Virus record (IMG/VR): IMGVR_UViG_3300044645_002359
Location: 22,355-86,354 of that record
Strand: one strand, 5' to 3'
Length of the DNA: 64,000 bases
DNA from: a virus
Position 1 is the first letter of the stretch. Each line of letters starts with the position of its first letter. Positions 9,405 to 49,825 of this stretch are shown here, one piece after another. Both the position numbers and the translations under genes were made by a program. The notes beneath the pieces are model-generated. The model was not told the DNA's origin. It made no database searches and saw only the letters and a list, made by a program, of their open reading frames with translations.

Positions 9405-10253
9405 ATGAAAATTCGCATTATTGCTACCTCAGCAGCTATCGCTTCACTCGCCACTCCCGCGCTCGCCGCACCTCAATTTTCTGACGCTGCTCGGACAAAT
9501 TGGGCCTATGGCGCTCTTCAAAACCTCGCTGAAAAGTATGGTTGTGTTGCTGGTTATCCCGATGGTACTTTCCGTGGTAGCAATTCCACCACCCGTTACG
9601 AAAGCGTTGCTCTCGTGAGTGCCTGCATTGATCGGGTTTATGACACCCTGAGCCAAGCTGATCGTCGCATTGCAGACGAGGCTCGCATTGCAATCGTAGC
9701 GACTGATGCTCGTGTTTCTGCCCTTGAGAACACAGCAACTCGGAAAGCGGTTGGAGTCGGCAGTTACGTTGGTGCAGGCGTTAACCTGAATCGTCAAGGC
9801 GTTAGCAGCGATGCCTATGGAAACAATCGCACTGTTGTTGGAGCTACCCTTCAGGGACGTTTCCCCCTGGGTAACCTCTACGGAGTTTCCACTTCTGCCC
9901 GCCCCTATGTAAACTTTGCGGCTGGACCAGATAGCCAAATTGGTTCTGCCCTCGGTGTTCTGGGTACCGTTGACGTTTCCTTGGCTGGGCGTACCATTGG
10001 CGGTATCCTCGTTAGCAGCACTAACCTCTACTTCGGTGCCGGTGGCCAATGGGCTTTGACGAATAATGGTCAGGCCAACTATCAAACTAGCGTTGGTCAA
10101 GGTTCTCAGTTTGTATTTGTTGCCGGTGTTGAGCGTTCCTTCACTCCGTCCCTGGTTGGTTTCGCTGATCTGAAGTTCCCGACCCAGGAAAATGGTGTTG
10201 CTGGAACGGCTTACGCCCCAGTTGGCACTATCGGCCTCGGATTTAAGTTCTGA
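9405..10253 (+). CDS. SLH-domain outer-membrane beta-barrel protein (cyanobacterial Som/OprB-like mini-porin)
   Basis: Signal peptide, then the SLH motif FSDAARTNWAYGALQNLAEKYGCVAGYPDGTFRGSNSTTRYESVALV, then a Gly/Ser/Thr-rich region of alternating residues ending in …GLGFKF, the outer-membrane-protein C-terminal Phe. Confidence 0.6.
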   Translation: MKIRIIATSAAIASLATPALAAPQFSDAARTNWAYGALQNLAEKYGCVAGYPDGTFRGSNSTTRYESVALVSACIDRVYDTLSQADRRIADEARIAIVATDARVSALENTATRKAVGVGSYVGAGVNLNRQGVSSDAYGNNRTVVGATLQGRFPLGNLYGVSTSARPYVNFAAGPDSQIGSALGVLGTVDVSLAGRTIGGILVSSTNLYFGAGGQWALTNNGQANYQTSVGQGSQFVFVAGVERSFTPSLVGFADLKFPTQENGVAGTAYAPVGTIGLGFKF

Positions 10254-11085: not shown

Positions 11086-12075
11086 ATGATCGCCCTACCC
11101 AACGTCAAGGAAGAAACGGTTATCGAGCCGTTAGTCAAAGAACTGATTCAGGTTACCGTTGAAACAGAAGGCGGTTTGGGTTACGTTCATAGGAAAACTT
11201 TTCAATTCAGTGCAGGAGAGACTCAAGTTCGCCTCAGTCCTTTGCCTACAGGAGTCAGGAAGATTCGAGTTAGGGCGGATATTGAGAGCAGCCAAACTTT
11301 GGTAGAACTTCTTCTGACTTTGGATGCTATTAACAATCTAGAGTACCAAGGTCCTGTCGGATTAACCCTCCCATACCTTCCTTACAGCCGTCAAGACCGC
11401 GCCTGCGCACCTGGCGAGGCTTTTGCCCTTTCTGTTCTTGTAAACTGCCTCGTCCCGTATCTCGGTGCCGACGACACTATCACAACTTGGGATGTTCACA
11501 GCAGTGTGGCACGAACCCTTTTCGATAGTAAATTCCAGGGAGTATTCTATAATGTCTCCGCAGCGAGTCTCTTGCAGAATTTTGAGCTTGAAAAAGATGT
11601 GGTATTCAATCCCTCAACCATTGTCATTGCCCCAGATAAGGGTGCTGTAGACCGGGCCACAGAAGTTCAAAATGTCCTGGGACTAGAACGGACCGTGTAC
11701 GCAACCAAAGTTCGCAATCCGGACGACGGCCAGATCCTAAGAACAGAAGTTCCCGAAGACGTGAATTACCGAGGCAAAAACCTTTTGATTGTAGACGACA
11801 TTTGTGATGGTGGCCGCACTTTCATCGAACTTGCCAAGGTTTTGCGAGAATACGAGCCGTCACGTATTGACCTTTATGTGACACATGGGATCTTCTCAAA
11901 AGGTTTCAAAGTTTTTGAGGGCTTTATTGACAACATCTACGTAGCCAACCTGTTGATGGAACTCATTGAGCACCGCGATGGACGAAAGTCGTTCCCATCA
12001 GGTTCTGACCTCTGTGAAAATGTGGGATGTTATAGAGAATTTCCGAGCAACGTGACTTATCTCCGAAACATTTAA
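11086..12075 (+). CDS. ribose-phosphate pyrophosphokinase (PRPP synthetase)-like; candidate ADPR-PP synthetase (Adps) of an NAD-reconstitution pathway
   Basis: 329 aa; PRPP/PRTase motif NLLIVDDICDGGRTF; Prs-like length; immediately upstream of the NAMPT-like gene. Confidence 0.65.
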   Translation: MIALPNVKEETVIEPLVKELIQVTVETEGGLGYVHRKTFQFSAGETQVRLSPLPTGVRKIRVRADIESSQTLVELLLTLDAINNLEYQGPVGLTLPYLPYSRQDRACAPGEAFALSVLVNCLVPYLGADDTITTWDVHSSVARTLFDSKFQGVFYNVSAASLLQNFELEKDVVFNPSTIVIAPDKGAVDRATEVQNVLGLERTVYATKVRNPDDGQILRTEVPEDVNYRGKNLLIVDDICDGGRTFIELAKVLREYEPSRIDLYVTHGIFSKGFKVFEGFIDNIYVANLLMELIEHRDGRKSFPSGSDLCENVGCYREFPSNVTYLRNI

Positions 12076-12113
12076 CCCTGCTCGACAACCCAAGTCAAAC
12101 CTCTTAACAAACA

Positions 12114-13616
12114 ATGAAACTCTTCGCCCCTAACCTTACAGACTTCTACAAGACGGGTCACTACCGCCAGTACCCTGAAAACACGGAGTTCATCTACTCG
12201 AACATGACCGCACGGTCGGACCGTCTCGCCAAGATGCTCCCCGACTACGACCACAAAGTAGTGGTAGCAGGTATTCTGGGCACAGCAGCTTGGTACCTTC
12301 GCGACCTTTGGAACGATACTTTCTTCAGTCAACCTAAAGACCGAGTACTTGAAAAGTACCGCAGGCGAATGGACTCGGCTCTCGGACCTGGCGCCGTGAG
12401 CACAGCCCACCTGGCCGAACTTCACGACCTCGGTTACCTTCCAATCCGAGTAAAGGCTCTCCCAGAAGGCACCCGTGTCAATCTGCGCGTCCCCTTCCTC
12501 ACGGTGGAGAACACACACCCCGACTTCTATTGGGTGACTAACTACATTGAAACTGCCCTGTCGGCTGAAGTTTGGAAGCATGTCAACAATGCAACCATCG
12601 CCTACGAGTTTCGCCGCCTACTTGACCGATACGCAGATCTAACAGGGACTGACCGGTCTTTTGTTGACTTCCAGGCGCACGACTTTTCCTTCCGAGGAGT
12701 TAGTGGTATTCACGATGCTGCTGCCCACGGGATTGGACACCTGTTCTCCTTCAAGGGTACGGACAACATCCCGGCAATTGACTTCTTGGAAGATTACTAC
12801 AACGTTGAAGGCGAATTTATCGCCGGTGGCGTCCCTGCTACCGAACACAGTGTTATGTGCACCGGGGGCCAAGATACTGAGATTGACACCTACAGGCGTC
12901 TGATTTCTGAAACTTACCCGACTGGTATTGTTAGCATTGTTAGCGACACTTGGGACTACTGGAACGTTCTCACGAACATTGCTGCCCAACTGGAGGAGAC
13001 GATCCTGAATCGCCAACCGGATGCCCTTGGCCTTGCCAAAGTTGTATTCCGCCCTGATAGTGGAGACCCCGAGAGAATCCTTTGCGGCGACCCGGACGCT
13101 GAACCCGGCAGTCCAGCCTTCAAAGGCTCTCTGCAGCTCCTCTGGGACCTCTTCGGAGGCACCGTAAACGAGCAGGGCTTCCGCGTCCTTAACCCTCGCG
13201 TGGGCCTCATCTACGGTGACTCGATCACCCTTCCTAGAGCTCTTTCCATTCTGGAGAACATGCACAGCAACGGATGGGCCAGCGGTAACGTTGTTTTCGG
13301 TGTGGGTTCGTACACTTACCAGTTCCACACTCGCGATACATTCGGCATCGCTTTCAAGACGACTTGGACTCAAATCAACGGTCAACCTGTCGAAGTTATG
13401 AAAGATCCGATTACCGACCGTGGAACTAAGAAGTCGGCCAAAGGGTTGCTTCGTGTTGAAGAAGAGAATGGCGAGTACGTTCTCTACGAGCAACAAAGTC
13501 GAGATGAAGAGAGTCGAGGAGAACTGCGAACCGTATTTATGAATAGCCAGGTCTTCGAAAGACCCGACGAGAGTTTGACGAACATTCGCAGTCGTCTTGT
13601 CTCGCCAAATTCCTAA
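12114..13616 (+). CDS. nicotinamide phosphoribosyltransferase (NAMPT/NadV)-like; candidate Namat
   Basis: 500 aa; the N-terminus NLTDFYKTGHYRQYPENTEFIYSNMTAR matches the NAMPT start (TDSYKVTHYKQYPPNT…); overall NAPRTase-family architecture. Confidence 0.75.
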   Translation: MKLFAPNLTDFYKTGHYRQYPENTEFIYSNMTARSDRLAKMLPDYDHKVVVAGILGTAAWYLRDLWNDTFFSQPKDRVLEKYRRRMDSALGPGAVSTAHLAELHDLGYLPIRVKALPEGTRVNLRVPFLTVENTHPDFYWVTNYIETALSAEVWKHVNNATIAYEFRRLLDRYADLTGTDRSFVDFQAHDFSFRGVSGIHDAAAHGIGHLFSFKGTDNIPAIDFLEDYYNVEGEFIAGGVPATEHSVMCTGGQDTEIDTYRRLISETYPTGIVSIVSDTWDYWNVLTNIAAQLEETILNRQPDALGLAKVVFRPDSGDPERILCGDPDAEPGSPAFKGSLQLLWDLFGGTVNEQGFRVLNPRVGLIYGDSITLPRALSILENMHSNGWASGNVVFGVGSYTYQFHTRDTFGIAFKTTWTQINGQPVEVMKDPITDRGTKKSAKGLLRVEEENGEYVLYEQQSRDEESRGELRTVFMNSQVFERPDESLTNIRSRLVSPNS

Positions 13617-13625
13617 ACTCAGGGC

Positions 13626-13645
13626 AAGGGAGAGTTTACTCTCCC
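13626..13645 (+). terminator. hairpin GGGAGAGTttaCTCTCCC after the NAMPT-like gene
   Basis: Perfect 8-bp stem directly after the stop codon. Confidence 0.4.
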
Positions 13646-13716
13646 TCTCCGGGGGGTATAATGATGAAAGAACTAACGTCCCCGTGCGATGGGGGAACAC
13701 CTAAATCACTAAGGTT

Positions 13717-14307
13717 ATGGACTACAAGACAATCGCATACAAAAAGACCATTCTGGTCCTCAATTCCACGTATGAACCACTCAATAGTACCTCATGGCGC
13801 AGGGCTAGAGTTCTAGTCTTGAAGGAAAAAGCTCATGTAGTTTCTAGTCGCACAATTCGCCTGAAAAACTACGTGAAGGTCCCCCAAGCCAAAATGGCTG
13901 CTGGAAAGCCTTCTCGCGCTCTCATTTTGAAGAGAGACGGACACACCTGCCAGTACTGTGAGTATTCCGGTCCCAACCTTACAATCGACCACGTAGTTCC
14001 GAAGTCTCGAGGCGGCCAAGACACTTGGCAGAACCTTGTTACTAGCTGCCTAGAATGTAACAACTGCAAGGACAATCGTACCCCAGAAGAATGGGCTATG
14101 GCCCTGAAGAAGGTGTTTGCCAAAGAAACTACGAATGTTTCCCCCTTGCCATTCACCTGGGATAGCTTCCAGGTCGGAATGATGGAGACCAGAGTAAACA
14201 GCCGGGGCACAACCTTAATTGGAAAGCCGAAGGCACCTTACAGCAAGATGTCTGTTACGATTAGCACTGCCGAAGTTGACGAGTGGCGCGAATACGTTTA
14301 CGTGTAA
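13717..14307 (+). CDS. HNH endonuclease
   Basis: CQYCEYSGPNLTIDHVVPKSRGGQDTWQNLVTSCLECNNCK is an HNH motif. Confidence 0.75.
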   Translation: MDYKTIAYKKTILVLNSTYEPLNSTSWRRARVLVLKEKAHVVSSRTIRLKNYVKVPQAKMAAGKPSRALILKRDGHTCQYCEYSGPNLTIDHVVPKSRGGQDTWQNLVTSCLECNNCKDNRTPEEWAMALKKVFAKETTNVSPLPFTWDSFQVGMMETRVNSRGTTLIGKPKAPYSKMSVTISTAEVDEWREYVYV

Positions 14308-18088: not shown

Positions 18089-18496
18089 ATGGAACAAAAT
18101 CTGCGCCACTACCTGATCGACTGGCTTAACGAGTGGGGCTACAATGCCCTGGAAGAGTTGGCCGAATTTGACATCCGCGTTGCTCGCGATGAGCGTTACC
18201 CGAACCTCTTCAACCTGAAGTACGGCAGCGTGATGGCGGACAAGTCGCTGCCGATCGTTCGCGCTTGTCGTGGTGCTGTGGTTGAGCGTGTTGATAACGA
18301 TGGCGACCACTCGCCGTACTACCGCCTGGTAGCGTATGCTTTCGATCGTTTCTTCAACGTCGGCGAAGGTTATTGTCACGAACTAGATTGGTCGCATACC
18401 AAGGTTTATGAGAAGTACGATGGTTGCTTACATGCTGAGACTAAGGTAGAAACCTCAAAAGGTACAAACTATCAAAGAGATTTGCGAGAAGCCTGA
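18089..18496 (+). CDS. T4 Rnl1-like RNA ligase N-extein (motif I KYDG) fused to split-intein IntN; IntN is frameshifted and continues in another frame to about 18718
   Basis: DWLNEWGY…IVRACRGAVVERVD…DRFFNVGEG…KVYEKYDG tracks the T4 RnlA N-terminal region. This is followed by C|LHAETKVET (intein block A), and after a shift of one base by …YKITLENGNTIVLTGNHKVWD (block B, close to the gp41-1 IntN YKITLEDGKEIICSEEHLF). Confidence 0.6.
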   Translation: MEQNLRHYLIDWLNEWGYNALEELAEFDIRVARDERYPNLFNLKYGSVMADKSLPIVRACRGAVVERVDNDGDHSPYYRLVAYAFDRFFNVGEGYCHELDWSHTKVYEKYDGCLHAETKVETSKGTNYQRDLREA

Positions 18497-18688
18497 TGAA
18501 GTCAAAGTTTACGGCTTCGACCACAAATCTGAAGAGAAAGTAGAAGTTCCCATTGAGGCTGTCTCTGTCAAACAATGCAAGCCTGACACCCAGTGGTACA
18601 AAATCACATTGGAGAACGGAAACACCATCGTTCTAACAGGGAACCATAAAGTCTGGGATGAAGTGTCCCATTCCTACATCAGAGTAGA

Positions 18689-19789
18689 TCAACTTTCTGG
18701 AGAAGAGGAACTAAAGGAGTTTACTTGATACTTGACACTTTCACTAAGCTCATCTAGACTCATGTCCCGAATGTCTCTCTCCCAGATGTATATTACCGTA
18801 AACCCGTATTTCTCCGCAACTCCCTTCTTCTCTATATCCCTCTCCCAAATTTCTTCCACAAGGGTACTACCCCCTCCCGGAAGGTGAATACTGTCCCCAA
18901 ACGAATAGATTTCGGGGTTAGCGTGCCAATAGTCCCCCTGGACCTCTATTAGCACTTTGGTCCCCGTAATCAAAAAGTCAAATTGCCTTCTGGCAACAAA
19001 TCGAGAGAACTGAAATTTCAGACCCGCAAGTTCTAAAGCTTGAGACACCTTTTCTTCAACCTTGTTCATTTTCGTAAAAAACTTACCACTCAAGAAGTCA
19101 TCATTGACTTGCTTCCAGAATTTCCTTGTAAGCTCTCCTCTTCTTTCGGAGTACTCCTGCTTTCTTTCCTCGCCCCACCCCCTTCTCGTTTCCCTGAGTT
19201 TTTCTGCTATTGAACTCATCTTTTCCAAGGAAAAAGAAGCTCTAGTCAGAGAAATTGCCTCCGGGTTGGTAACCCTAAGCTTACCATAGCGCTCAAGATG
19301 AGTTTCGTTTATCTTTTCTTTGACATCTGAAAGTTGGAAAACATTGTCCACCCCGTACTTTGATCTAACTGTTTCATTTCTCTTGTGGTAAAATTCAGTT
19401 CCCTTACAGAGAACATTATTCACTCCGTACTTTTCTTGAGAAACTTTCACCATTTTACTTTTCTTTTGATTTGAACCATTAGCTTCTTTAATTTTTCTTA
19501 CAGGTATCTCAAAGTAGTCCATTAGAAAAGATAGTCTCCTGCCCGGTAATCCAAAAAGCTCTTTGAAGTCCGGGAAGCTGAACCCCTTAATCAGGTACAA
19601 GTGCTTTAGTTTTCTGCCACTCTCTAGTTTCAGCGCCGGGTAGCTAAGCTTCAAGGTGTTAAACCTGTACTCCTTTTCCGATAAACCAGGCCCCTTAAGA
19701 CAGGTTTTCAAATGAATCTTCCTTCCACACTCCTTAAGACAAACAAAGCAAACCAAACTCTTAACTAGAACCCCCATGAAAATCTCCAA
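18689..19789 (-). CDS. free-standing homing endonuclease (Vsr/DUF559-like PD-(D/E)xK C-terminal domain, repeated KYGVxNV N-terminal modules)
   Basis: The only − strand gene; C-terminal VLIEVQGDYWHANPE…ERDIEKK…GFTVIYIWERDI resembles a Vsr-like endonuclease domain; it sits between the IntN and IntC halves. Confidence 0.6.
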   Translation of the reverse strand: MEIFMGVLVKSLVCFVCLKECGRKIHLKTCLKGPGLSEKEYRFNTLKLSYPALKLESGRKLKHLYLIKGFSFPDFKELFGLPGRRLSFLMDYFEIPVRKIKEANGSNQKKSKMVKVSQEKYGVNNVLCKGTEFYHKRNETVRSKYGVDNVFQLSDVKEKINETHLERYGKLRVTNPEAISLTRASFSLEKMSSIAEKLRETRRGWGEERKQEYSERRGELTRKFWKQVNDDFLSGKFFTKMNKVEEKVSQALELAGLKFQFSRFVARRQFDFLITGTKVLIEVQGDYWHANPEIYSFGDSIHLPGGGSTLVEEIWERDIEKKGVAEKYGFTVIYIWERDIRDMSLDELSESVKYQVNSFSSSSPES

Positions 19790-20654
19790 AATAGAAAAGA
19801 TAGAAAGTGACTCCCACCTATATGATATACAAACTTTTACCCGTAACTTCTACGCTGAGGGGGTATTGGTACACAATAGCTTAATCAAGCTCTTCAACTA
19901 CAACGGGGACTGGATTGTTTCGACGTCCGGATCGGTGGCAGCAGCTTCGGAAGTTGGTTCCACTGGGCGTTCTTTTGAGGAACTGTTCTGGCTTGTCTTT
20001 GACGAAGTTGGTTATTCTCGGGAATGGCTCGATGAGGGTCTGTGCTATATCTTCGAACTGTGCCACCGCGATAACCGCATCGTTGTGGATTATGCAGAGC
20101 CTCAGTTACCGCTGCTGGCTGTGCGCGACCGTTCCAACGATTTCGAAGAGCTTGAACTTGTTTCGTTCTGCAACCTGTTCGGGTTCAAAGCTGCCAAGTC
20201 GTATGACCTGGGGAGCATGGAAGGCTTGATGGCAGTCGTGAACGATCGTGGCGCCGACCACGAAGGGTTTATCCTGTTTGACGGTGTTGGTCGTGCGAAA
20301 GCAAAGTCCGATGTGTACTGCCAAATGCACCGTGTTCGCGGAAACGGCGATCCGGACTTCTCCGAGCTTTTTCTGAACGACGATTTGGAAGAATTCCTAC
20401 TGCACTTCCCTGAGTACCGTGAGGGCTTCGACGTTCACCTGCGTTCCATCGACATAATGGAAGTTGCTGTGGAAGAGATCATGGGGGTTTACAACCACTT
20501 GAATCAGAAGGACTTTGCTCAAGTTGTAATTGCTAAGGAGAGGGAACTGTCGGGGGCTTGTTTTGCGATTCGCTCCGGTAAAGTTGGCTCCTTCGGTCAG
20601 TGGCTGGAAGGCTTGTCTCCGAAGAAGCTGGATGCCCTGCTGGGTATCAACTGA
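19776..20654 (+). CDS. split-intein IntC (…FYAEGVLVHN|S) fused to the RNA ligase 1 C-extein
   Basis: MKISKIEKIESDSHLYDIQTFTRNFYAEGVLVHNS gives intein blocks F and G with a +1 Ser. The extein SLIKLFNYNGDWIVSTSGS…EGFILFDGVGRAKAKSDVY matches T4 Rnl1 DGSLVST…KSKGS and motifs IV and V EGYVAV…KIKSDWY. Confidence 0.65.
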   Translation: MKISKIEKIESDSHLYDIQTFTRNFYAEGVLVHNSLIKLFNYNGDWIVSTSGSVAAASEVGSTGRSFEELFWLVFDEVGYSREWLDEGLCYIFELCHRDNRIVVDYAEPQLPLLAVRDRSNDFEELELVSFCNLFGFKAAKSYDLGSMEGLMAVVNDRGADHEGFILFDGVGRAKAKSDVYCQMHRVRGNGDPDFSELFLNDDLEEFLLHFPEYREGFDVHLRSIDIMEVAVEEIMGVYNHLNQKDFAQVVIAKERELSGACFAIRSGKVGSFGQWLEGLSPKKLDALLGIN

Positions 20655-22045: not shown

Positions 22046-22405
22046 ATGGCCGAAATCAAAGTAGTCAACAAGTACCACATCGGCGGGAGGCCGATGAAGC
22101 CCCCGGAAGGAGTCATTCGTGCAGCAGTTTACCGCAGCACACCTTTAGGCAACCCTTTCAAAATGGTTAACTCTTCTATTGAGGAGAGGAACAGGGTGTG
22201 CGACGCTTACGAACAATGGTTACCAGCTAAGCTCCTGCAAGATGGAGCTGAGTTAGCCCAGTTCAACGAACTACTGAAACTAGCTCAAACACCGGGGTGC
22301 GAGGCACTAGAACTAATCTGCCATTGCGCCCCAAAACGTTGCCACGGAGACACCATTAAACGCTTACTCGAAACAGAACTTCAAAATGAAATTACCTTTG
22401 ACTAA
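22046..22405 (+). CDS. DUF4326-like protein
   Basis: GNPFKM…RVCDAYEQWL…CHCAPKRCHGD matches the DUF4326 pattern GNPF…Y..WL…C.C.P..CHGD. Confidence 0.45.
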   Translation: MAEIKVVNKYHIGGRPMKPPEGVIRAAVYRSTPLGNPFKMVNSSIEERNRVCDAYEQWLPAKLLQDGAELAQFNELLKLAQTPGCEALELICHCAPKRCHGDTIKRLLETELQNEITFD

Positions 22406-22625
22406 CGTCCTGTCAGAACTCTCTACTGAAGACAAGAATCTTTACACGGCACTTTTGAGTGTCGTCACAGTTGTAATTCTGCTCCTGCTGGGAATGACCT
22501 CTTGTGCTATCACGGAAAGTCGAGAGCGGATTAATAGAACAATCCTAGATTGCAGAAGTACAGCTGTTAATAGAGTCGAGTCAACAGATACACTCGACTT
22601 GATTTGTGGGAAACTGCCTCAGTGA
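22386..22625 (+). CDS. small membrane protein (79 aa)
   Basis: Transmembrane segment LLSVVTVVILLLLGMTSCAI. Confidence 0.35.
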   Translation: MKLPLTNVLSELSTEDKNLYTALLSVVTVVILLLLGMTSCAITESRERINRTILDCRSTAVNRVESTDTLDLICGKLPQ

Positions 22626-23362
22626 CACACTCCCGATATGCCATTATCGGAGACGTTCACTCTCAAGCATTCCCCTTGAAGAATGCCCTAGACTACTGTT
22701 ACGATAACAACTTAACTCCAATTATTCTTGGCGACCTTTTTGATTCGCAGTGTCAGGTTTCAGAGTCAGTTTCTGTTTACAACCTTGTAAGAAAGTCTCA
22801 GGGCGATCTTGGAGCGATTGTACTTCGCTCGAACCACCAGCACCTCCTTGAGAAACTTATCAAAAAAGAAGAGGTTTCCCTTAAAAAAGACTTGTGTAAA
22901 ACAGTCAGAGAGTTTCAAGAGGCAGGAATTTGTCTAACTGAGGTAGGGCAGTGGCTTGAAACTTTCCCTTACGTTTTCGCCTTCCGAGACTCTCGAGGAC
23001 AAGAGTACAGAGTCGCTCACGCGGAAATTCCTGCTTCAGTAAAGGTACCGAACTTCGATCAAACCTGGATGTATCTTCACCCCACGGAACAAGAGCTGCG
23101 ATGCCTGCTTTGGGGCGCCGATTACTCCCTGCCCAACCGTGACCGGTTCTGGTGGCTCGGGAAGCCCGAGAGGGACTGGGTAGCCGTCGCGGGCCATTAC
23201 CACAAGGTTGTCAACGATGGCCGCTCTCTCGTCCTCGACGCTGGGTGTGGAGGGAAGACCCGCGCCTGGTACGACAAGCGTCCCCCTGCGTTACTTCTCT
23301 ACGACGTTGAGGTCCAAAGCCTGATTGAATTCCCGGCTTTTGATAACTCGGTCGTAGGGTAA
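22622..23362 (+). CDS. metallophosphoesterase, PPP/ApaH-like (paralog 1)
   Basis: YAIIGDVHSQ…ILGDLFDS…LRSNHQHLL are PPP-family motifs; GTGA-coupled GTG start inferred. Confidence 0.6.
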   Translation: MTHSRYAIIGDVHSQAFPLKNALDYCYDNNLTPIILGDLFDSQCQVSESVSVYNLVRKSQGDLGAIVLRSNHQHLLEKLIKKEEVSLKKDLCKTVREFQEAGICLTEVGQWLETFPYVFAFRDSRGQEYRVAHAEIPASVKVPNFDQTWMYLHPTEQELRCLLWGADYSLPNRDRFWWLGKPERDWVAVAGHYHKVVNDGRSLVLDAGCGGKTRAWYDKRPPALLLYDVEVQSLIEFPAFDNSVVG

Positions 23363-23381: not shown

Positions 23382-24032
23382 TTGATAATGAATCCTGGGT
23401 CAATCTCCGAAAGCACTCGCGAACTTGTATTTGACTTTACTCGGTGCGTCAAAGCCGACGGGAGCTTTTATGGTACGTCAGGTAAGTGCCGAAAAGGCTC
23501 CGAAGTTGATGCCAAGGAAAAACCCTATAAAGTAGGAGTAACTTGGGGCAAGTACAATATTCCAACCCCAGGCCACGCTCGCGTTGTCAAGAACCTGCTC
23601 AAGAAATCTCAGGTTGTGAACGTGATTATGAGCGGAGCGAAGACCAACGTCGACTGGAACTTGCGAAATCTAATGTTTCGCCGAGTGCTCAAGCAACAAG
23701 GGGTGGACGTTTCTCGTGTGAAATTCGTTCACGCCTCAAATACCTTTGAAGCTCTGACAAAGATCATTGATTCTCAAGGTTCGAAAAATGTTCTCCTTGC
23801 ACTTGGCGAAGATCGTAAGAACTACCTAGATGGACTGACCAAAAAGTTAGGGATCGGAGGGCAGTTAATCCCTCGTGCCGCTGGGTCGGAAAGTTCAACT
23901 ATGATGCGTGGGTTGATTGACTCCAAGGACTTCAAAAAGTTAGGAGAAATATACGGCAATGATCCTTATTTGGTGAAACTGGCTAGAATTATCCGGAACG
24001 AAGAGACGAAGAGGGACGGTAAACCGAACTGA
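23382..24032 (+). CDS. NMN/NaMN adenylyltransferase-like nucleotidyltransferase with the N-terminal DFTRCV…GKC module
   Basis: N-terminus LVFDFTRCVKADGSFYGTSGKCRKG is the shared module; then GKYNIPTPGHARVV (an HxGH-type motif) with cytidylyltransferase-fold similarity; paralog of 47873. Confidence 0.5.
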   Translation: MIMNPGSISESTRELVFDFTRCVKADGSFYGTSGKCRKGSEVDAKEKPYKVGVTWGKYNIPTPGHARVVKNLLKKSQVVNVIMSGAKTNVDWNLRNLMFRRVLKQQGVDVSRVKFVHASNTFEALTKIIDSQGSKNVLLALGEDRKNYLDGLTKKLGIGGQLIPRAAGSESSTMMRGLIDSKDFKKLGEIYGNDPYLVKLARIIRNEETKRDGKPN

Positions 24033-26461: not shown

Positions 26462-27586
26462 ATGGCAAACATCGAACGCAAACTTGCATCTGTCCGCAAA
26501 GTAACGGACATTCGCCCCATCCCCGACGCTGACGCCATCGAATGCGCCATTGTAGGTGGTGGTTGGCCCGTGGTAGTGAAAAAGGGAGAATTTCAGGTTG
26601 GCGACCTCGCCATCTACTTCGAGATTGATTCCTGGATTCCTCACGAACTTGCCCCATTCCTCTCCAAGGGGAAGAAACCAAGGGAGTATAATGGAGTGAA
26701 GGGGGAGAGGCTGAAAACTGTCAGGCTCCGTGGTCAAGTCTCCCAGGGTCTCCTGCTCCGCTTCTCGGACATCTCTCCAAGCTTCTACGTTGTCTCGCTA
26801 GCCGAACCTTACGGGGGGAGGGAATTTCTCCGAGTTGATCAGTGCGTGTGGGAGGAAGGTGAGGACTTCACTCTAGAGTTCGGAATTCAGAAATGGGAAG
26901 CTCCTGTCCCAGCTTGCTTGGCTGGTCAAGTTCGCGGGAACTTTCCTAGCTTCCTCGTGAAGACGGACCAGGAACGTTGTCAGAATGTTGTGGAGGAAAT
27001 CTTTGAGCGCCATAAGGGTGAAACCTACGAAGTTACTATCAAACTTGATGGGTCTTCCTGCACGGTCTACGTCAAGGACGGGGAAGTTGGGGTGTGCAGC
27101 CGTAACCTTGACCTCAAGGAAACCGAAGGCAATAGTTTCTGGAAGGCTGCTAGGGATCAGGGCATTATCGATGCTATGCTTGCATACAATGGGAAGACTG
27201 GTCACAGTATTGCCTTGCAGTCGGAAACCCTTGGAGAAGGCATCCAGGGCAACCAGGAAGGAATCAAGGGACAACGCCTATTCCTGTTTGACATCTTCGA
27301 TATCGACAGCCAAACTTACATGAAGCCAGGGGCCAGAATGAACCTCTTGGACAAGTACCTAGTTCCATTAGGCGCTGATTTAACCCATACCCCTGTCCTA
27401 CACCCCGCAATGTGTGTAACTGATAGTTCCGCCAACCTTGATGAGCTACTAGCGTACGCCGATGGCCCGTCCATGAACCCCAAAGTCAAACGCGAAGGCT
27501 TAGTATTCAAGTCCAATGACTCTGAGTTTTCCTTCAAGGCCATTAGTAATGAATGGCTCTTATCCAAGGGAAAGAAGGGTGGCTGA
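26462..27586 (+). CDS. ATP-dependent RNA ligase (KxDG nucleotidyltransferase with an N-terminal OB-like extension; DraRnl/Rnl5-like)
   Basis: Motif I IKLDGSS, motif IV EGLVFK, motif V FKAISNEWLLSKGKK; an N-terminal domain of about 170 aa precedes the nucleotidyltransferase. Confidence 0.65.
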   Translation: MANIERKLASVRKVTDIRPIPDADAIECAIVGGGWPVVVKKGEFQVGDLAIYFEIDSWIPHELAPFLSKGKKPREYNGVKGERLKTVRLRGQVSQGLLLRFSDISPSFYVVSLAEPYGGREFLRVDQCVWEEGEDFTLEFGIQKWEAPVPACLAGQVRGNFPSFLVKTDQERCQNVVEEIFERHKGETYEVTIKLDGSSCTVYVKDGEVGVCSRNLDLKETEGNSFWKAARDQGIIDAMLAYNGKTGHSIALQSETLGEGIQGNQEGIKGQRLFLFDIFDIDSQTYMKPGARMNLLDKYLVPLGADLTHTPVLHPAMCVTDSSANLDELLAYADGPSMNPKVKREGLVFKSNDSEFSFKAISNEWLLSKGKKGG

Positions 27587-28289: not shown

Positions 28290-28562
28290 ATGATCGACAC
28301 CATCCCGCCAACAACATTCGATACTCGAACAGATACCATTAGGTATCCGGACGGCGTTGAAGAAACCTTAGTCCAATACCAAAAACGCAACCGCCAATTT
28401 GAATATATCCGGGGCCTGCAAAATGCTTTAGAAAGAATGAAGGTCCTATATCAGAACCCCGGCTGCCTTACCGAAGGGGAGTATAACGCAGCGAAGGACG
28501 CCATCCAAGGGCAATTTGACTATTGGGAAATGAATCTGTTTATCGAATTCGGAGACAAATGA
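28290..28562 (+). CDS. hypothetical protein (90 aa)
   Basis: ORF. Confidence 0.4.
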   Translation: MIDTIPPTTFDTRTDTIRYPDGVEETLVQYQKRNRQFEYIRGLQNALERMKVLYQNPGCLTEGEYNAAKDAIQGQFDYWEMNLFIEFGDK

Positions 28563-29026
28563 CCATTACCAAATTCTCAGGCCAATTCAGTTTCCTGTCA
28601 AACTTTTATGAGAGCGTTCTAGAATACGAGGGGATCAAATACCCCACAGTCGAACACGCCTTTCAAGCAGCTAAGACTCAGGATCCCGAAGCTCGCCAGC
28701 AAATTGCAAATATGCAAAAGCCGAGCGAGGCCAAAGCTGCGGGAAACCGTAACGGCATTATCAGGGACTTTGACCCCGTAGAGTGGGAACTTAGAAAAAA
28801 CGGAGTCATGGAAGAGTTACTACGCATTAAATTTCAGAACCCAGATCTAAAAAACCTCCTAGCACAAACAGGAAACGCAAAACTAATCGAAGGCAACACT
28901 TGGGGAGACACTTATTGGGGAGTTGATGTTGTGACCGGCGAGGGCGCTAACAAACTTGGTGTCATCCTTGAGGGGATTCGCAACGAGATTGCTGAGGCAA
29001 TGGCAAAGAATAAGCGTCAATCTTGA
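28559..29026 (+). CDS. NADAR-domain protein (YbiA-like)
   Basis: FSGQFSFLSNFYESVLEYEGIKYPTVEHAFQAAK…GNTWGDTYWG matches the NADAR/DUF1768 signature F.G.Y.FLSNF…Y.T.EHAFQA.K. Confidence 0.7.
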   Translation: MTITKFSGQFSFLSNFYESVLEYEGIKYPTVEHAFQAAKTQDPEARQQIANMQKPSEAKAAGNRNGIIRDFDPVEWELRKNGVMEELLRIKFQNPDLKNLLAQTGNAKLIEGNTWGDTYWGVDVVTGEGANKLGVILEGIRNEIAEAMAKNKRQS

Positions 29027-29041
29027 ACATCCGCACAAACA

Positions 29042-29563
29042 ATGACTGCACTCAACAAAACCGAAGGCGACCTATTAGCAATGGCTCGCGAGGGCCAGTT
29101 TGACATAATCGTTCACGGGGCAAACTGCTTCAACAAAATGGCTTCTGGAATTGCCGGGCAAATCAGCCGTGAACACCCTGAGGCTGCTGAAGCCGACCGC
29201 GCCACAGAGTCTGGTGACAGGGGCAAGCTTGGCAACTATACTATGGCTCACGTGCGAGAGATATGGTTGATACAACGTGCCTTCACGATCGTTAACGCTT
29301 ACACTCAGTACACCTATGGGCGAGAAGGAGACTTGTTTGAGTACAACGCCTTTGAAAAGTTTCTGGCAAATTTTGAGACTTTTCTGAGAAAAGTGTACGT
29401 GTTGGCGGGTGCCGACAAGAAAACCAGGGTTGGCTTCCCTTACATCGGTTGTGGCCTTGCAGGTGGAGACGAGCAAAGAATAGTAGAGATGATCGAAAAC
29501 TTCTCTGTGTCTTGCCAAGACATTGCGGATGTCACTCTTGTTAGATTTGTCCGAGATACATGA
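29042..29563 (+). CDS. macro-domain protein (ADP-ribose binding or processing)
   Basis: FDIIVHGANCFNKMASGIAGQI matches the macro-domain core, with a phosphate-binding-loop-like GCGLAGGD. Confidence 0.55.
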   Translation: MTALNKTEGDLLAMAREGQFDIIVHGANCFNKMASGIAGQISREHPEAAEADRATESGDRGKLGNYTMAHVREIWLIQRAFTIVNAYTQYTYGREGDLFEYNAFEKFLANFETFLRKVYVLAGADKKTRVGFPYIGCGLAGGDEQRIVEMIENFSVSCQDIADVTLVRFVRDT

Positions 29564-29748
29564 ACTCACTACAATGGCTTAACGTTGCCAGTTGCTCTGC
29601 CCGCCGCTTATCAAGCCTTCGCTTCAGAGGTAGTTCCACATCGGAAACTAAGAAGGGAGAGAAAGAAACTCTCGATATGGCGCTCGCCAAGGTTAATACC
29701 ACTATCCTAAACCGTCTGAGGAAGCAACTCCCGAACCCTCAAGGGTAA
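29560..29748 (+). CDS. hypothetical protein (62 aa)
   Basis: ATGA overlap. Confidence 0.3.
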   Translation: MNSLQWLNVASCSARRLSSLRFRGSSTSETKKGEKETLDMALAKVNTTILNRLRKQLPNPQG

Positions 29749-29772: not shown

Positions 29773-30105
29773 ATGCAAGGTTCATTCTCTGAAGATTCTC
29801 TTAAAATCTTTCACAATTTGGCTTCACAGTCCCAAGGTTTAAGCTATAGTGAGTCTAGGGAAGATTCGTATGACTTTACACGCTGTGTAAGACCAAATGG
29901 GACCAGCTTTGGAACCTCAGGGAAATGCACACCACCGAATCGCCAAGCGGCGCCAAGTAATCTTGTAGCGGAAGTTAACCGCGAGGAAGTAGAGGCTCGG
30001 CAGTTAATGTCCGGTGGCCGCAGAAACAGCAGGGCTATGCAGCGCCGCGCAAAAGAACTACTTGAGAGTGCTCGAAGAAAGAGGAGCGGCAAGCCGACGG
30101 CATGA
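29773..30105 (+). CDS. small basic protein made of the shared N-terminal DFTRCV…GKC module plus an Arg-rich tail
   Basis: MQGSFSEDSLK…YDFTRCVRPNGTSFGTSGKC is near-identical to the N-terminus of 4699. Confidence 0.5.
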   Translation: MQGSFSEDSLKIFHNLASQSQGLSYSESREDSYDFTRCVRPNGTSFGTSGKCTPPNRQAAPSNLVAEVNREEVEARQLMSGGRRNSRAMQRRAKELLESARRKRSGKPTA

Positions 30106-30310
30106 GTTCGGTTCTCACGCTTCACTCCTACAGGTGAGGCACTATACTTGTAATACCCTTGTGGAAGCCCTTAGAGCGCACCAGGCGCTCCTAGAGGAGC
30201 CCGTTTCTCCTAACCCGGAGACCCCTGCCCCAATAGCGGCGGATGCTCTACAGGCGGTGTCCGTGCCCTCTGAGTTCATACACAAAGGCACCTCCACCCT
30301 GTGACGCAAA

Positions 30311-30376
30311 GGGCGGTAAACCGACCAAAAACTTTCGGTTCTCCCCCTTGTGCCTGCAGCGCAGAGACGCTATAGT
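30311..30376 (+). promoter_or_regulatory. hairpin-promoter cassette copy 10
   Basis: GGGCGGTAAACCGaccaaaaactttCGGTT; -35 TTGTGC; spacer CTGCAGCGCAGAGA; -10 TATAGT; ATG at 30383. Confidence 0.55.
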
Positions 30377-30382
30377 AATAAT

Positions 30383-31114
30383 ATGAAGAACGTCAATTAC
30401 GCCTTTATTGGCGACCTCCACTCTCAAATTTCGCCTTTGCGAAAAGCACTGAACTATTGCAACGAAAACGGATGCGTCCCTGTGCTTTTGGGCGACCTGT
30501 TTGACTCGCGCATGGAAACCAGCGATAGCGTAGCTGTCTACAACACTGTGCGTCAAGCTGTTGAAAACGGTGCGATTGCTCTGAGAAGCAATCACCAGAA
30601 CAAGCTGGAGCGTCACGCTCGCGGTAACAACGTTCTGTTGAAAGAAGGTTTTGATCGCACTGTCCGAGACTTTCAAGAAGCTGGTATCTGCTTGACTGAA
30701 GTAGGGCAATGGCTGGAAACTTTCCCGTATGGTATCGCCCTGAGGGACTCTCGAGGAGTCGAATACCGCTGCGCCCACGCAATGTTCCCCCGATGGGTTC
30801 TCGTTCCTGAAAACTACGATGGGGTTTACCGTGTGAACGAAGTGACTCGTAAAGCGAAAGATTACATGCTGTATGGGCCACGCCGTGCTGGTGCGGTCTG
30901 GCCTCAAGACCAAACTCGAGTGTTCTGGTGGGAAGAAGAATCGAATCGCGATTGGGTTCGTGTCGCGGGCCACTACCACCACATTCACGTGAGCGATAAG
31001 AGCCTTGTTCTCGACGGACAGATGGGTGGCAGCACCCAAGAAGGCTTCGACCCGGCGCAAGCTCGCCTCTGCGTCTGGAACCTCGAAGAGCAAACGCTTA
31101 CTCAATTCACCTGA
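30383..31114 (+). CDS. metallophosphoesterase, PPP/ApaH-like (paralog 2)
   Basis: YAFIGDLHSQ…LLGDLFDS…LRSNHQNKL; 50-60% similar to 22622..23362. Confidence 0.65.
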   Translation: MKNVNYAFIGDLHSQISPLRKALNYCNENGCVPVLLGDLFDSRMETSDSVAVYNTVRQAVENGAIALRSNHQNKLERHARGNNVLLKEGFDRTVRDFQEAGICLTEVGQWLETFPYGIALRDSRGVEYRCAHAMFPRWVLVPENYDGVYRVNEVTRKAKDYMLYGPRRAGAVWPQDQTRVFWWEEESNRDWVRVAGHYHHIHVSDKSLVLDGQMGGSTQEGFDPAQARLCVWNLEEQTLTQFT

Positions 31115-44566: not shown

Positions 44567-45487
44567 GTGAAACTCGAAGCCGTTATTGTTTGCGTCAACT
44601 ACTCTGACTTTTTGGCGCATACCCTACCAAGTACCAGAAATCAATTCGATAAACTTGTAGTTGTTACCGATACTAAGGATAACGATACTAAGAAGCTATG
44701 CGAATACTACAATGTAGAATGTGTTCAAACAGACGTATTCTATGAGGGGGGAGACGCATTTAATAAAGGTAAGGGTATCAATGCCGGTTTAGAGCGATTG
44801 GACCTTGATGGCTGGGTTATTCACTTAGATTCAGACATTTACTTGCCACCTCAAACACGGTCGATTCTAGAGAATTTGCCTCTAGATAATGGGAAAATCT
44901 ACGGGGCTGACCGTCTAATGTGCCCTGGTTACGAAGAGTGGTTGAGATTCTTAGATAAACCCTCCCCTATTCAAGACTCTTGGATTTTCATCCACCCTAC
45001 AAGATTCCCGGTCGGAGTCCGAATCGCAGAGTATAAAACTTGGCACGGTGGCTATGAACCAATTGGCTACTTCCAGCTATGGAATCCAGAAGGGTCAGGT
45101 ATTCACCGTTACCCGAATGAACACGGGTTCGCCGACCGTACAGATGTTCTGCATTGCAAAAAATGGCCTAGAGAAAAAAGAGAATTGCTTCCTGAAATTC
45201 TCGTTATACACCTAGAAAGCGAAGCAGGAATAGGTCTAAATTGGAAAGGCAGAAAGACTCCAATGTTTGGGCCAAAAGCCACCTTGCCAACCCTATCTTG
45301 GCTGGACAAACTATTTTTATTCTTAAATAAATTAAGCAAGTGCGGTTACAAACCTAACCTTAAAGTCTCAAAGGAATCAAAGAAAGAAAAATTAAGTAAG
45401 TTAGAACAAGGTGAGATAAAAGTCATAGGTGCAGGCTCAATTGAAGGTCCATTAGATGACTCATTGGAAGAGTGGCTGAGAGGCTGA
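44567..45487 (+). CDS. putative GT-A-fold glycosyltransferase / nucleotide-sugar transferase (GTG start)
   Basis: N-terminus AVIVCVNYSDFLAHTLPS…KLVVVTDTKDND with the DxD-like HLDSDIY resembles family-2 glycosyltransferases. Confidence 0.35.
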   Translation: MKLEAVIVCVNYSDFLAHTLPSTRNQFDKLVVVTDTKDNDTKKLCEYYNVECVQTDVFYEGGDAFNKGKGINAGLERLDLDGWVIHLDSDIYLPPQTRSILENLPLDNGKIYGADRLMCPGYEEWLRFLDKPSPIQDSWIFIHPTRFPVGVRIAEYKTWHGGYEPIGYFQLWNPEGSGIHRYPNEHGFADRTDVLHCKKWPREKRELLPEILVIHLESEAGIGLNWKGRKTPMFGPKATLPTLSWLDKLFLFLNKLSKCGYKPNLKVSKESKKEKLSKLEQGEIKVIGAGSIEGPLDDSLEEWLRG

Positions 45488-47872: not shown

Positions 47873-48394
47873 GTGAGAAGCAAAATTGCTTTAACGTTCG
47901 GCCGGTTCAATATCGGTCACTCAGGCCATGTTGAGCTGATTGAGAAATTGCTCATCCACGGCGATATTGCCAAAGTGTACGTATCGTCCGGTGGGAAGAA
48001 CAACGACTGGAACCTTCGCGTTCTCCTCCTGCGCACGTTGTGTCGCCAAGCGGGACTTGACCTAAACAGGGTATCATTTCTCAAGGCCATTAATCCTTTC
48101 AAGGCTCTCTCCGAGACTTTAGAAGGTTGTGACCCTGAGAACGTTTCTCTGGTTCTCGGCTCTGACCAAGTTACGATTGGAAGGGAACTTTCGCAAAGAT
48201 TCGACGTTTTCTTCTTTGAAAATGGAAGAAGTAGTTCAAGCACTGAAGTGAGAAAGATCCTAGACAGGGGTGCAACCTTAACCCTTTACTCCAATAACCG
48301 ATACGCCTTGAAACTTGCAAAACTCTTGAGACACGAGGAAACTTCAAATGAAAAGTTCAGAAAAACTCAAAGAAAAACTAAGAACCCTGCTTAA
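47873..48394 (+). CDS. NMN/NaMN adenylyltransferase-like nucleotidyltransferase (GTG start), paralog of 23382
   Basis: FGRFNIGHSGH (an HxGH-type motif); NDWNLRVLLLRTLCRQAGLDLNRVSF parallels VDWNLRNLMFRRVLKQQGVDVSRVKF of 23382. Confidence 0.5.
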   Translation: MRSKIALTFGRFNIGHSGHVELIEKLLIHGDIAKVYVSSGGKNNDWNLRVLLLRTLCRQAGLDLNRVSFLKAINPFKALSETLEGCDPENVSLVLGSDQVTIGRELSQRFDVFFFENGRSSSSTEVRKILDRGATLTLYSNNRYALKLAKLLRHEETSNEKFRKTQRKTKNPA

Positions 48395-48645: not shown

Positions 48646-49107
48646 ATGAACGAACTCGAAGCCTACGTGATGGTCGGTGCCCCTGGCTCTGGAAAGTCGA
48701 CCCAAGTTTCTAAGCTGGTCGCCAGCCACCCGGATGCCATTGTGATTTCCGGTGATGATATCCGCGCTGAACTCTACGGCGACGCAAACATCCAAGGCAA
48801 TTACGTCGAAATTCACGACCGTATGCTGGAAATTCTCGAAGAGAATGTCGGTCGCACCGTAATCATGGATGGCACCCACTACAGGGCCGCTTACCGCAAG
48901 GAAGCTATCGCTATGCTGAACTCATACGGGTACAACAAAGTTGTTGCTGTAGTAGTCGACAAACCTCTTGCTGTTTGCTTGCGACAGAACTCTTTGCGGG
49001 ACCGTAAAGTTCCCGAGCATGTGATTGAGCGCATGCACAACTCTTTGCAAGCTTCCCTCAAGAGCATCATCAACGAACCCTTCCACCGAATTGACTTTAT
49101 ATACTGA
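48646..49107 (+). CDS. P-loop polynucleotide 5'-kinase domain protein (T4 Pnk kinase-like)
   Basis: Walker A VMVGAPGSGKST, then …ISGDDIRAELYG, similar to the Pnk kinase N-domain. Confidence 0.6.
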   Translation: MNELEAYVMVGAPGSGKSTQVSKLVASHPDAIVISGDDIRAELYGDANIQGNYVEIHDRMLEILEENVGRTVIMDGTHYRAAYRKEAIAMLNSYGYNKVVAVVVDKPLAVCLRQNSLRDRKVPEHVIERMHNSLQASLKSIINEPFHRIDFIY

Positions 49108-49111
49108 CGCA

Positions 49112-49825
49112 ATGATCACCTACAGCAACAAATTACATCAAGGTGACGTAGTTGCCCTCGGGGATATTCACGCGACCTGGACTCTTTTTGGGCAATTTCT
49201 GAGTTGGGTGAAAGACTCTCGGGCTACAGTCATCCTTTTGGGGGATATGTGTGACCGTGGCGGTGGCGACCTGAAAGTTTTAGAGCAGGTGAAAAGGCTC
49301 CTTAACGGTCCGGAGGACTGGGGGCTTCAAGCCTTTTATGCCCTGATGGGAAACCATGAGAGAATGTTTCTTGATGCCATGTTGGGTGATCCTCATGGTC
49401 AAGGTTACCACTTGTGGATACAAAACGGGGGCAATTTTGATCAGGCACCTGAGATGGTGAAAGAGCACGCAGCCTGGATAAAAGAACTACCAATCTACAT
49501 GACCATCGGTGATACTTTATTTGTACACGGGGGTATTTACCCTGGTCACGACCCAGCTAAAGCTGTTGCGGAGAAACGAGGAGATGCTCTTCTGTGGATG
49601 CGCCAACCTTTCCTCACGTTTGGCCCTGAGTTCGAACTTTGGAACCCTAACTTAAAGAGGGTTGTTCACGGTCACACACCCACGGTTTTTGAAGAAGGTG
49701 GTCAAGATCGCGTGCCAATTCACAAAGGCGACAGGGTGAATATTGACACCGGTGCTTACGCTCGTAAAGGGTGCCTCACTGCCTACAACGTTACTCAAGA
49801 TACCTTTTGCCAGTTCTTCCGTTAG
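49112..49825 (+). CDS. metallophosphoesterase, PPP/ApaH-like (paralog 3; GDxHG, GDxxDRG, GNHE)
   Basis: VVALGDIHAT…LLGDMCDRGG…LMGNHE; adjacent to the Pnk-like kinase. Confidence 0.65.
   Translation: MITYSNKLHQGDVVALGDIHATWTLFGQFLSWVKDSRATVILLGDMCDRGGGDLKVLEQVKRLLNGPEDWGLQAFYALMGNHERMFLDAMLGDPHGQGYHLWIQNGGNFDQAPEMVKEHAAWIKELPIYMTIGDTLFVHGGIYPGHDPAKAVAEKRGDALLWMRQPFLTFGPEFELWNPNLKRVVHGHTPTVFEEGGQDRVPIHKGDRVNIDTGAYARKGCLTAYNVTQDTFCQFFR

Follow-up and report, generated by a model that had tools for sequence, protein, structure and literature searches.

We analyzed a 64,000-nucleotide stretch of viral DNA (positions 22,355 to 86,354 of the IMG/VR record IMGVR_UViG_3300044645_002359; from here on, the window) that encodes a NADAR protein, a macro-domain protein and an ADP-ribosylglycohydrolase (ARH). 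On balance, we lean towards seeing them as three independent ADP-ribose enzymes of known kinds: an AdfN-type NADAR, an Adpp-type macro protein serving the NARP1 pathway that rebuilds nicotinamide adenine dinucleotide (NAD+), and a Tri1/DraG-like ARH. A first-pass annotation, made from the DNA letters, had joined the three with NAD+ genes of the window into one dedicated module that reverses ADP-ribosylation; what it observed is partly confirmed, and its interpretation is partly supported. The genes that carry the argument are the following:

28559-29026, + strand: NADAR (YbiA fold), candidate AdfN-like orphan DNA ADP-ribosylglycohydrolase (from Pfam, fold, residues and homology)
29042-29563, + strand: Poa1p-like macro protein, candidate Adpp-like ADP-ribose-1''-phosphate phosphatase (from phrog, profile, fold and motifs)
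54760-55704, + strand: ARH, Tri1/DraG-like (from PF03747, PDB matches and motifs)
11086-12075, + strand: PRPP-synthetase-like, candidate Adps, the first NARP1 enzyme (Pfam Pribosyltran and Pribosyltran_N)
12114-13616, + strand: NAMPT family, Namat type, the second NARP1 enzyme (PF04095, 7e-39)

The window is phage DNA, since phage-family matches run all along it and similarity at the DNA level was found only to Synechococcus and Aeromonas phage genes. The NADAR, macro and ARH genes are located in an early or accessory phage region.

An AdfN-like NADAR protein

The 155-aa product of the NADAR gene matches Pfam PF08719 with E=5.2e-26 (92.3 bits against a gathering threshold, GA, of 35.1), and a sequence search of the PDB recovers YbiA (2b3w, E=9e-17). 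Its AlphaFold2 model (pLDDT 95.6) superposes on the same YbiA structure with a Foldseek template-modelling (TM) score of 0.79, and on the complex of Phytophthora nicotianae NADAR with ADP-ribose (8bau) with a TM score of 0.78. The family call of the first-pass annotation was thus right. Residues Glu32 and Lys39, within the motif VEHAFQAAK, are invariant across 45 homologs. Their 7-residue spacing is that of the catalytic pairs defined as E36/K43 in T4 AdfN (PMC11825919) and as E88/K95 in E. coli C7 NADAR (PMC11543638).

Homologs of this family occur in 481 of 50,697 phage records, and the closest ones in cultured phages include those of T5-like phages. Over its full length the window protein is 45% identical (E=2e-40, 120 bits) to bas32_0066, which we traced via its locus tag to AdfN of Bas32 (Escherichia phage IrisVonRoten). 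Bas32 AdfN neutralises DarT1, and three phages were rescued from DarTG1 and not from DarTG2 (Johannesman et al. 2025, PMC11825919). Both proteins are orphan phage NADARs of about 150 aa that consist of the core YbiA fold only, both keep the catalytic Glu/Lys pair and the motif EGNTWGDTYWG, and in both phages a small upstream ORF (open reading frame) overlaps the start of the gene by 4 nt. These two upstream ORFs were compared as possible homologs and the idea was rejected, as the comparison shows no homology. The window NADAR differs from Bas32 AdfN in coming from an unrelated, much larger phage, where an anti-DarT1 role would rest on homology.

The protein is encoded without an adjacent DarT toxin, and a Pfam scan of about 100 window ORFs gave no match to an ADP-ribosyltransferase (ART) or DarT domain; nor did the same scan reveal KptA/Tpt1, 2H, Nudix or SLOG domains. 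It does not resemble DarG1 either: the core fold begins at residue 1, there is no N-terminal extension and no darT1 lies nearby. Because of its 45% identity to a validated AdfN and the retained Glu/Lys pair, it is plausible that the window NADAR reverses guanine ADP-ribosylation, as the first-pass annotation had supposed. As an orphan antitoxin mimic of the AdfN type, it would release ADP-ribose from guanine in DNA by cutting the N-glycosidic bond, and in this way it would undo the modification made by DarT1-type or other guanine-directed ADP-ribosyltransferases. We infer this substrate, and the role in counter-defence, from fold, residues and homology.

A Poa1p-like macro-domain protein, probably of the Adpp type

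The 173-aa macro protein scores 19.0 bits on Pfam Macro (PF01661), below the GA of 22, and the match covers its N-terminal 29 residues only. In the Pfam check proposed by the first-pass annotation, NADAR and ADP_ribosyl_GH came out above GA and Macro below it. Rejecting the macro identity on this score was considered and then overturned by profile and fold searches. The protein matches phrog_335, annotated as phosphatase, at 3e-44, and a profile built from 52 homologous sequences matches BT1257, Poa1p, SCO6735, TARG1 and DarG at 1e-7 to 6e-5. With its AlphaFold2 model (pLDDT 92.7), the fold search returns Poa1p first (E=4e-9) and then TARG1 and DarG (down to 4e-7), and it retrieves 230 macro-domain chains of the PDB at E<=1e-3. 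The macro call of the first-pass annotation is upheld by these matches. The family is common, with homologs in 2,721 of the 50,697 phage records.

Yeast Poa1p (PDB 6LFQ) is the best structural match (TMq 0.73), and His25 of the window protein aligns with Poa1p His23. However, the two sequences are no more than 19-20% identical, the C-terminal loop reads IGCGLAGG, as in TARG1 and BT1257, and not INSGIFG, and the position of Ser30 is occupied by Lys in the window protein and by Thr in most homologs. A phage relative of described activity is Adpp of Vibrio phage Gary (KNV71_gp137), with 32% identity and a pairwise E=7e-18. Both are Poa1p-like macro proteins of 158-173 aa and share the active-site motifs HxxNC, GDxxKLG, NxYxQ and IGCGLAGGD. 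Gary Adpp dephosphorylates ADP-ribose-1''-phosphate (ADPR-1''-P or ADPR-1P), the product of the RES-domain defence aRES, to ADP-ribose (ADPR), so that NARP1 can rebuild NAD+, and it is needed for NARP1-AP to overcome aRES (Osterman et al. 2026, 10.64898/2026.01.28.702374). We looked in the text of that preprint for mutated Adpp residues and found none listed.

TARG1/OARD1 and DarG belong to the same macro fold subclass (E about 1e-7) and have the PxIGCGL loop in common with the window protein. Unlike them, the window macro has no catalytic Lys/Asp and no DarT-binding domain: by alignment, Gln89 and Ala140 occupy the positions of TARG1 Lys84 and Asp125 (Lys80 in DarG). In the TARG1 reference sequence used for this alignment, K84 and D125 fall at the expected positions. 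These replacements make it unlikely that the macro protein is a glycohydrolase of the TARG1/DarG type, or a protein or DNA de-ADP-ribosylase. The action on protein-linked ADP-ribose proposed in the first-pass annotation is hence improbable, a judgement to which the NAMPT partner described below and the phosphatase activity of its Adpp relative also contribute. AdfB of phage ICP1 was considered as a precedent for a macro-type DarG mimic and rejected; AdfB acts by binding DarT. We infer instead, from fold, motifs and linkage, an enzyme of the Poa1p/Adpp type that would yield ADPR from the ADPR-1''-P which RES-type NADases such as aRES produce.

NADAR and macro genes are neighbours by accident

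The NADAR and macro genes stand in a row of four ORFs (28290-29748, all on the + strand) of 90, 155, 173 and 62 aa, between two anchor genes. The features around the pair are:

26462-27586, + strand: RNA ligase of the DRB0094/PHA02142 type, upstream anchor (PF21189, PF09414; TIGR02306, 197 bits)
28290-28562, + strand: 90-aa hypothetical ORF, its stop overlapping the NADAR start as ATGA
29560-29748, + strand: 62-aa ORF, in an ATGA overlap with the macro stop
30350-31114, + strand: metallophosphoesterase, weakly Pnkp-phosphatase-like, downstream anchor (phrog_246, 1.7e-5; TIGR04075, 3e-7)

The first-pass annotation had described the NADAR and macro genes as adjacent and ATG-coupled. Adjacent they are, but a spacer of 15 nt lies between the NADAR stop codon, which ends at 29026, and the macro start codon at 29042; the true ATGA overlaps join the 90-aa ORF to NADAR and the macro gene to the 62-aa ORF. 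A scan for promoters and terminators found no terminator-like site between NADAR and macro, and for this reason the two genes are probably co-transcribed.

Such proximity is not kept in relatives. For each family we collected the 80 viral loci that matched best (160 in total) and found no conserved NADAR-macro operon among them. A NADAR gene lies within 10 kb of macro homologs in 2 of 80 loci by phmmer and in 6 of 80 with a profile, and a macro gene lies within 10 kb of NADAR homologs in 4 of 80. This co-localisation of 5-8% is roughly the expectation for unlinked genes in genomes of 100-300 kb. In syntenic relatives the order is RNA ligase, small ORF, 90-aa ORF, NADAR where present, 0-2.3 kb of unrelated ORFs where present, macro and metallophosphoesterase. 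The RNA ligase anchor is syntenic in loci L001-L003, L008, L009, L084 and L085, and the metallophosphoesterase follows the macro gene in L001-L004, L008, L012, L084 and L085. Among the nearest relatives, L001-L003 have no NADAR, and there the 90-aa ORF is directly upstream of macro. In L084, whose NADAR is 88% identical, 2.3 kb of hypothetical ORFs lie between the two genes, and in L085 they are separated by 1.4 kb of hypothetical ORFs; both loci keep the 90-aa ORF upstream of NADAR. Since the nearest relatives either lack NADAR or carry intervening unrelated ORFs, the adjacency in the window is an indel accident in a variable region between RNA ligase and metallophosphoesterase and not a conserved operon.

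The 90-aa ORF matched nothing in family searches including Pfam, and a family search with the 62-aa ORF, which has a homolog after macro in L001, gave no match. Two unrelated viral contigs (L101, 5588-10426, and L128, 9962-16798) carry a NADAR gene a few kb from a cluster of PRS-like, NAMPT and macro genes; NADAR therefore occasionally joins neighbourhoods of NAD+ reconstitution.

The macro partner is a NAMPT-family gene of the NAD+ pathway

In the same sample, a NAMPT-family gene is found within 10 kb in 47 of the 80 macro loci, usually directly downstream, with no more than 600 bp between the two genes in at least 29. This gene, and not NADAR, is the real partner of the macro family. We group the window macro with the NAD+ genes and not with NADAR because NAMPT is the conserved partner and because its relative Adpp is an ADPR-1''-phosphate phosphatase. 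In Hades and Gary, two Vibrio phages, the macro gene follows a PRPS-like gene and is itself followed by a NAMPT-like gene.

The NAD+ genes mentioned in the first-pass annotation do exist in the window and form a pair, with the Adps-like gene directly upstream of the Namat-like gene on the same strand (gap of 38 nt). The Adps-like protein scores 125 bits on TIGR01251 and is 31% identical to Gary Adps, and the Namat-like protein is 38% identical to Gary Namat (E=2e-104). The selectivity-clamp helix of Namat carries two aromatics, F392/Y396 in SPbetaL1 Namat (PMC12774641); the corresponding aromatic segment GVGSYTYQF of the window protein aligns with GIGSFTYQY of Gary Namat, while Nampt genes of NARP2 context carry GMGGALLQ instead. 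The long beta1-beta2 loop typical of Namat is present as well. This pair (11086-13616), acting in the order Adps-like and then Namat-like, is expected to turn ADPR back into NAD+. Like phage Gary, the window genome would thus combine an Adpp-like protein with an Adps-like and Namat-type pair.

In a syntenic relative (L020), Adps and Namat are followed by HNH, three small ORFs and then macro, which lies 1.5 kb downstream of Namat. This arrangement, and the combination of a PRS-like gene, NAMPT and macro in L101 and L128, speaks for a functional link of macro with NARP1 in the lineage of this phage despite the 15.4 kb that separate them in the window.

Two further observations concern these genes. 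An HNH homing endonuclease (13717-14307) lies directly 3' of the Namat-like gene, the same place as in L020. At 47873-48394 a 173-aa protein carries a GRFNIGHSGH (HIGH-type) nucleotidyltransferase motif, with family matches that are sub-threshold only; it could be a divergent nicotinamide mononucleotide (NMN) adenylyltransferase, adding a NARP2-like step.

The ADP-ribosylglycohydrolase stands apart

The ARH matches PF03747 over its full length (E=1.1e-69, 235.7 bits against a GA of 26.2), which bears out the first-pass annotation, and its closest PDB matches are the T. thermophilus ARH 2cwc (9e-57) and the arginine-specific Tri1 (6dre, 1e-53). The metal-binding motifs WTDDTS and GGDADSVGA are kept and align with those of both structures. 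The protein thus has the full-length ARH fold and metal-binding motifs of Tri1 from Serratia proteamaculans (6DRE), DraG and 2CWC. It differs from Tri1 in being phage-encoded, in having no partner ART in the window, in overlapping a thymidylate kinase gene, and in scoring 255 bits on the Tri1 equivalog NF041672, below the cut-off of 490. As a Tri1/DraG-like metal-dependent hydrolase, it would most likely remove ADP-ribose from protein arginine, in agreement with the ADP-ribose hydrolase proposed in the first-pass annotation.

ARH genes are rare in phages (46 of the 50,697 records, mostly jumbo phages). The one in the window is 25 kb from the NADAR-macro pair. In the two relatives L168 and L169, with ARH proteins 89% and 76% identical, the neighbours are the same and the thymidylate kinase gene (tmk) overlaps the ARH 3' end; since these neighbours are kept, ARH belongs stably to another gene block. 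With NADAR and macro near each other in 4 of 80 and 6 of 80 loci and their adjacency absent from the nearest relatives, the single linked module of the first-pass annotation does not hold.

Alternative explanations

Several observations weigh against three enzymes of the AdfN, Adpp and Tri1/DraG kinds. NADAR exceeds the cut-off of the YbiA "riboflavin-intermediate N-glycosidase" model (TIGR02464, 76.9 bits against 73.7), and in one study E. coli YbiA and T4 gp30.3 gave no protection from DarT1. The macro gene sits between an RNA ligase and a phosphoesterase, a position that fits the native RNA-repair role of Poa1p. It starts at 29042 and Namat ends at 13616, so that it falls outside the two-gene distance used to define NARP1-AP and, unlike Gary adpp, lies 15.4 kb downstream of the NARP1 operon, with a NADAR gene beside it. 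The Adps-like protein scores above the cut-off of a generic PRPP-synthetase subfamily and could be a true Prs; we sought residues that separate Adps from PRPS in PMC13586617, and no simple sequence discriminator emerged. Finally, the closest macro relatives (43-49% identity) adjoin Nampt-type and not Namat-type genes, in a NARP2 context (40 of 47 loci) where ADPR-1P dephosphorylation is without a published role. Among L005-L080, macro lies directly upstream of Nampt in, for example, L051 (8490-11945), L044 (8338-11989) and L023 (8308-11958), and in three of three loci sampled the macro-Nampt pair is preceded, at a distance of a few small ORFs, by a NadM-Nudix gene. We found no discussion of this arrangement in the NARP papers, and the NARP1-AP study does not address it. 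The arrangement suggests that NARP2 phages, too, are concerned with phosphorylated products of ADPR, for instance through macro and then Nudix, giving ribose-5-phosphate for phosphoribosyl pyrophosphate (PRPP).

A more unified scheme, which we regard as rather unlikely, is that NADAR, macro, ARH and perhaps a DUF4326 protein each free ADP-ribose from a different host-made conjugate, which may be guanine-linked ADP-ribose in DNA, ADPR-1''-phosphate and arginine-linked ADP-ribose in protein, and that NARP1 recycles it into NAD+. If this were true, the reversal of defence and the rebuilding of NAD+ would be one metabolic route. The additional gene in this scheme is:

22046-22405, + strand: DUF4326 protein (PF14216, 3.7e-14)

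It is a fourth gene related to ADP-ribose, absent from the list of the first-pass annotation. DUF4326 has been placed in the viral ADP-ribose network, often fused to Macro, NADAR or SLOG, and has been proposed to process terminal phosphates on ADP-ribose derivatives (Iyer et al. 2022, PMC9503650).

We consider it unlikely that macro, and perhaps NADAR, clear by-products of RNA repair together with the neighbouring ligase and phosphoesterase. The by-products would be ADPR-1''-phosphate or Appr>p, released when Tpt1/KptA-type enzymes remove 2'-phosphates during phage repair of cleaved tRNAs. The order RNA ligase, two small ORFs, NADAR where present, macro and metallophosphoesterase is kept in L001-L004, L008, L009, L084 and L085, and the metallophosphoesterase weakly resembles the Pnkp phosphatase domain. 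Besides a P-loop kinase and a phosphatase of the HAD PNKP type, the window has a second RNA ligase, which is Rnl1-like. NARP1-AP of Hades and Gary likewise has an RNA ligase and a phosphoesterase close by, and an RNA-repair role was predicted by Iyer et al. 2022 (PMC9503650). However, the Pfam scan showed no KptA/Tpt1, 2H phosphoesterase or ART that would feed such a pathway, and an RNA ligase is within 10 kb in only 9 of 80 macro loci, against the 47 of 80 with NAMPT. Moreover, to our knowledge, ligases of the DRB0094 type seal 3'-OH/5'-P nicks without leaving a 2'-phosphate.

The toolkit of the first-pass annotation, in which NADAR acts on guanine, macro on thymine (as DarG) or on protein glutamate (as TARG1 or SCO6735), and ARH completes the set, is in our opinion improbable to a similar degree. 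Besides the superposition of macro on the TARG1 and DarG macrodomains, it draws on the motifs IGQ/AYTQ and IGCGLAGG that macro has in common with SCO6735 and BT1257. SCO6735 reportedly removes mono-ADP-ribosylation from protein in vitro. The 15-nt distance on one strand with no intervening terminator is also in its favour, and tandem NADAR-Macro proteins have been noted in some viruses (Iyer et al. 2022, PMC9503650). It is contradicted by Gln89 and Ala140 in the place of the catalytic residues, by a co-localisation close to random placement that is lost even in close relatives, by the tight linkage of the macro family to NAMPT genes instead, and by the distant ARH in another conserved block.

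For NADAR, a YbiA-type metabolic N-glycosidase acting on riboflavin-pathway intermediates or another small-molecule N-riboside, and not on DNA in counter-defence, appears quite improbable. This idea is suggested by the TIGR02464 score, by E. coli YbiA as the best PDB match, and by database labels, since JGI calls close homologs "ribA/ribD-fused" and some phage homologs are labelled GTP cyclohydrolase II. However, that score does not discriminate, because Bas32 AdfN itself reaches 66.3 bits on the same model, near the value of the window protein. NADAR is closer to Bas32 AdfN than to YbiA (34% identity), the window has no riboflavin gene, and every NADAR subfamily tested, YbiA included, hydrolyses guanine-linked ADP-ribose in vitro.

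Lastly, macro, NADAR or both might break down soluble immune signals or toxins derived from ADPR (its cyclic isomers and related molecules). This seems most improbable: RyDEP is a precedent of a signal-degrading enzyme feeding NARP1, but neither family has a member known to cleave such signals, the one phage macro homolog tested is an ADPR-1P phosphatase, and the phage NADARs tested act on DNA.

Genomic setting and other genes of the window

Proteins 95-100% identical to the NADAR and macro products are encoded on metagenomic contigs of 201-282 kb, and the source is an uncultured, large phage (about 280 kb) that is probably cyanophage-like. The window encodes an SLH-domain protein (9405-10253) and a DPBB lytic transglycosylase (7509-7982). 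The SLH domain, with the nearest phage matches (Synechococcus phages S-CREM1, B3 and B23), gives a hint of a cyanobacterial host.

Just downstream of the macro gene lies one copy of a paralogous set (4699-6291, 23388-24032 and 29773-30105) with the common N-terminus MQGSFSE[DQ]SLK ... DFTRCV[RK]. The C-terminal part of the longest paralog matches the minor head protein family phrog_16619, and the common N-terminus may be a targeting or packaging module. The anchor metallophosphoesterase is the middle one, and the weakly Pnkp-like one, of three calcineurin-like paralogs (22604-23362, 30350-31114 and 49112-49825). A 285-aa ORF on the minus strand (30248-31105) is a shadow of its gene.

The Rnl1-type RNA ligase gene is seemingly interrupted (18089-20654). 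Its N-terminal part (18089-18496, + strand) is followed by a DUF7487/DUF559 endonuclease-like ORF (18689-19777, - strand) and by an ORF (19776-20654, + strand) that begins with an intein C-terminal splicing motif and continues as the Rnl1 C-terminal part; L020 has a single longer Rnl1 homolog (12444-13655). The P-loop kinase (AAA_33/Zeta-toxin-like, 48646-49107) and the HAD PNKP-type phosphatase (53156-53554) are separate genes, and with the two RNA ligases they form an apparent kit for healing and sealing RNA or DNA ends.

Two TET/JBP-family dioxygenases, a GT2 glycosyltransferase, an R2K ATP-grasp and a SprT-like protein (58372-59859, 61062-62057, 44567-45487, 63113-63877 and 57310-57915) suggest a system of DNA base hypermodification. 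If so, this system could affect sensitivity to DNA-targeting defences.

Implications for ADP-ribose counter-defence in phages

Iyer, Burroughs and Aravind (2022, PMC9503650) had described large phages in which Macro, NADAR, ARG, DUF4326 and NAD+ salvage genes occur together. The window resembles their network in that the genes co-occur in early regions of large myovirus-type phages, together with RNA-repair genes. That work was a survey, however, and predates the AdfN, NARP1 and Adpp experiments that assign specific roles. NADAR, macro, ARH and NARP1 each match a described phage counter-defence family, to which the window adds divergent members in an uncultured jumbo-sized phage. All components already have characterised phage relatives, and the gain is consequently at the level of annotation.

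As a worked example, the window would show several measures against immunity based on NAD+ and ADP-ribose stacked in one phage: NARP1 together with AdfN-like and Adpp-like enzymes, and also an ARH, which few phages have. It also illustrates that adjacency alone can mislead, because the real partner of the macro gene is the NAD+ rebuilding pathway 15 kb away. As judged from these gene orders, a putative Adpp-like gene can be unlinked from NARP1, and for this reason NARP1-AP may be commoner than the 15% of NARP1 phages in which it was counted on the basis of operons. Moreover, genes of this macro family are often part of NARP2-type operons, beyond the published aRES/NARP1-AP model.

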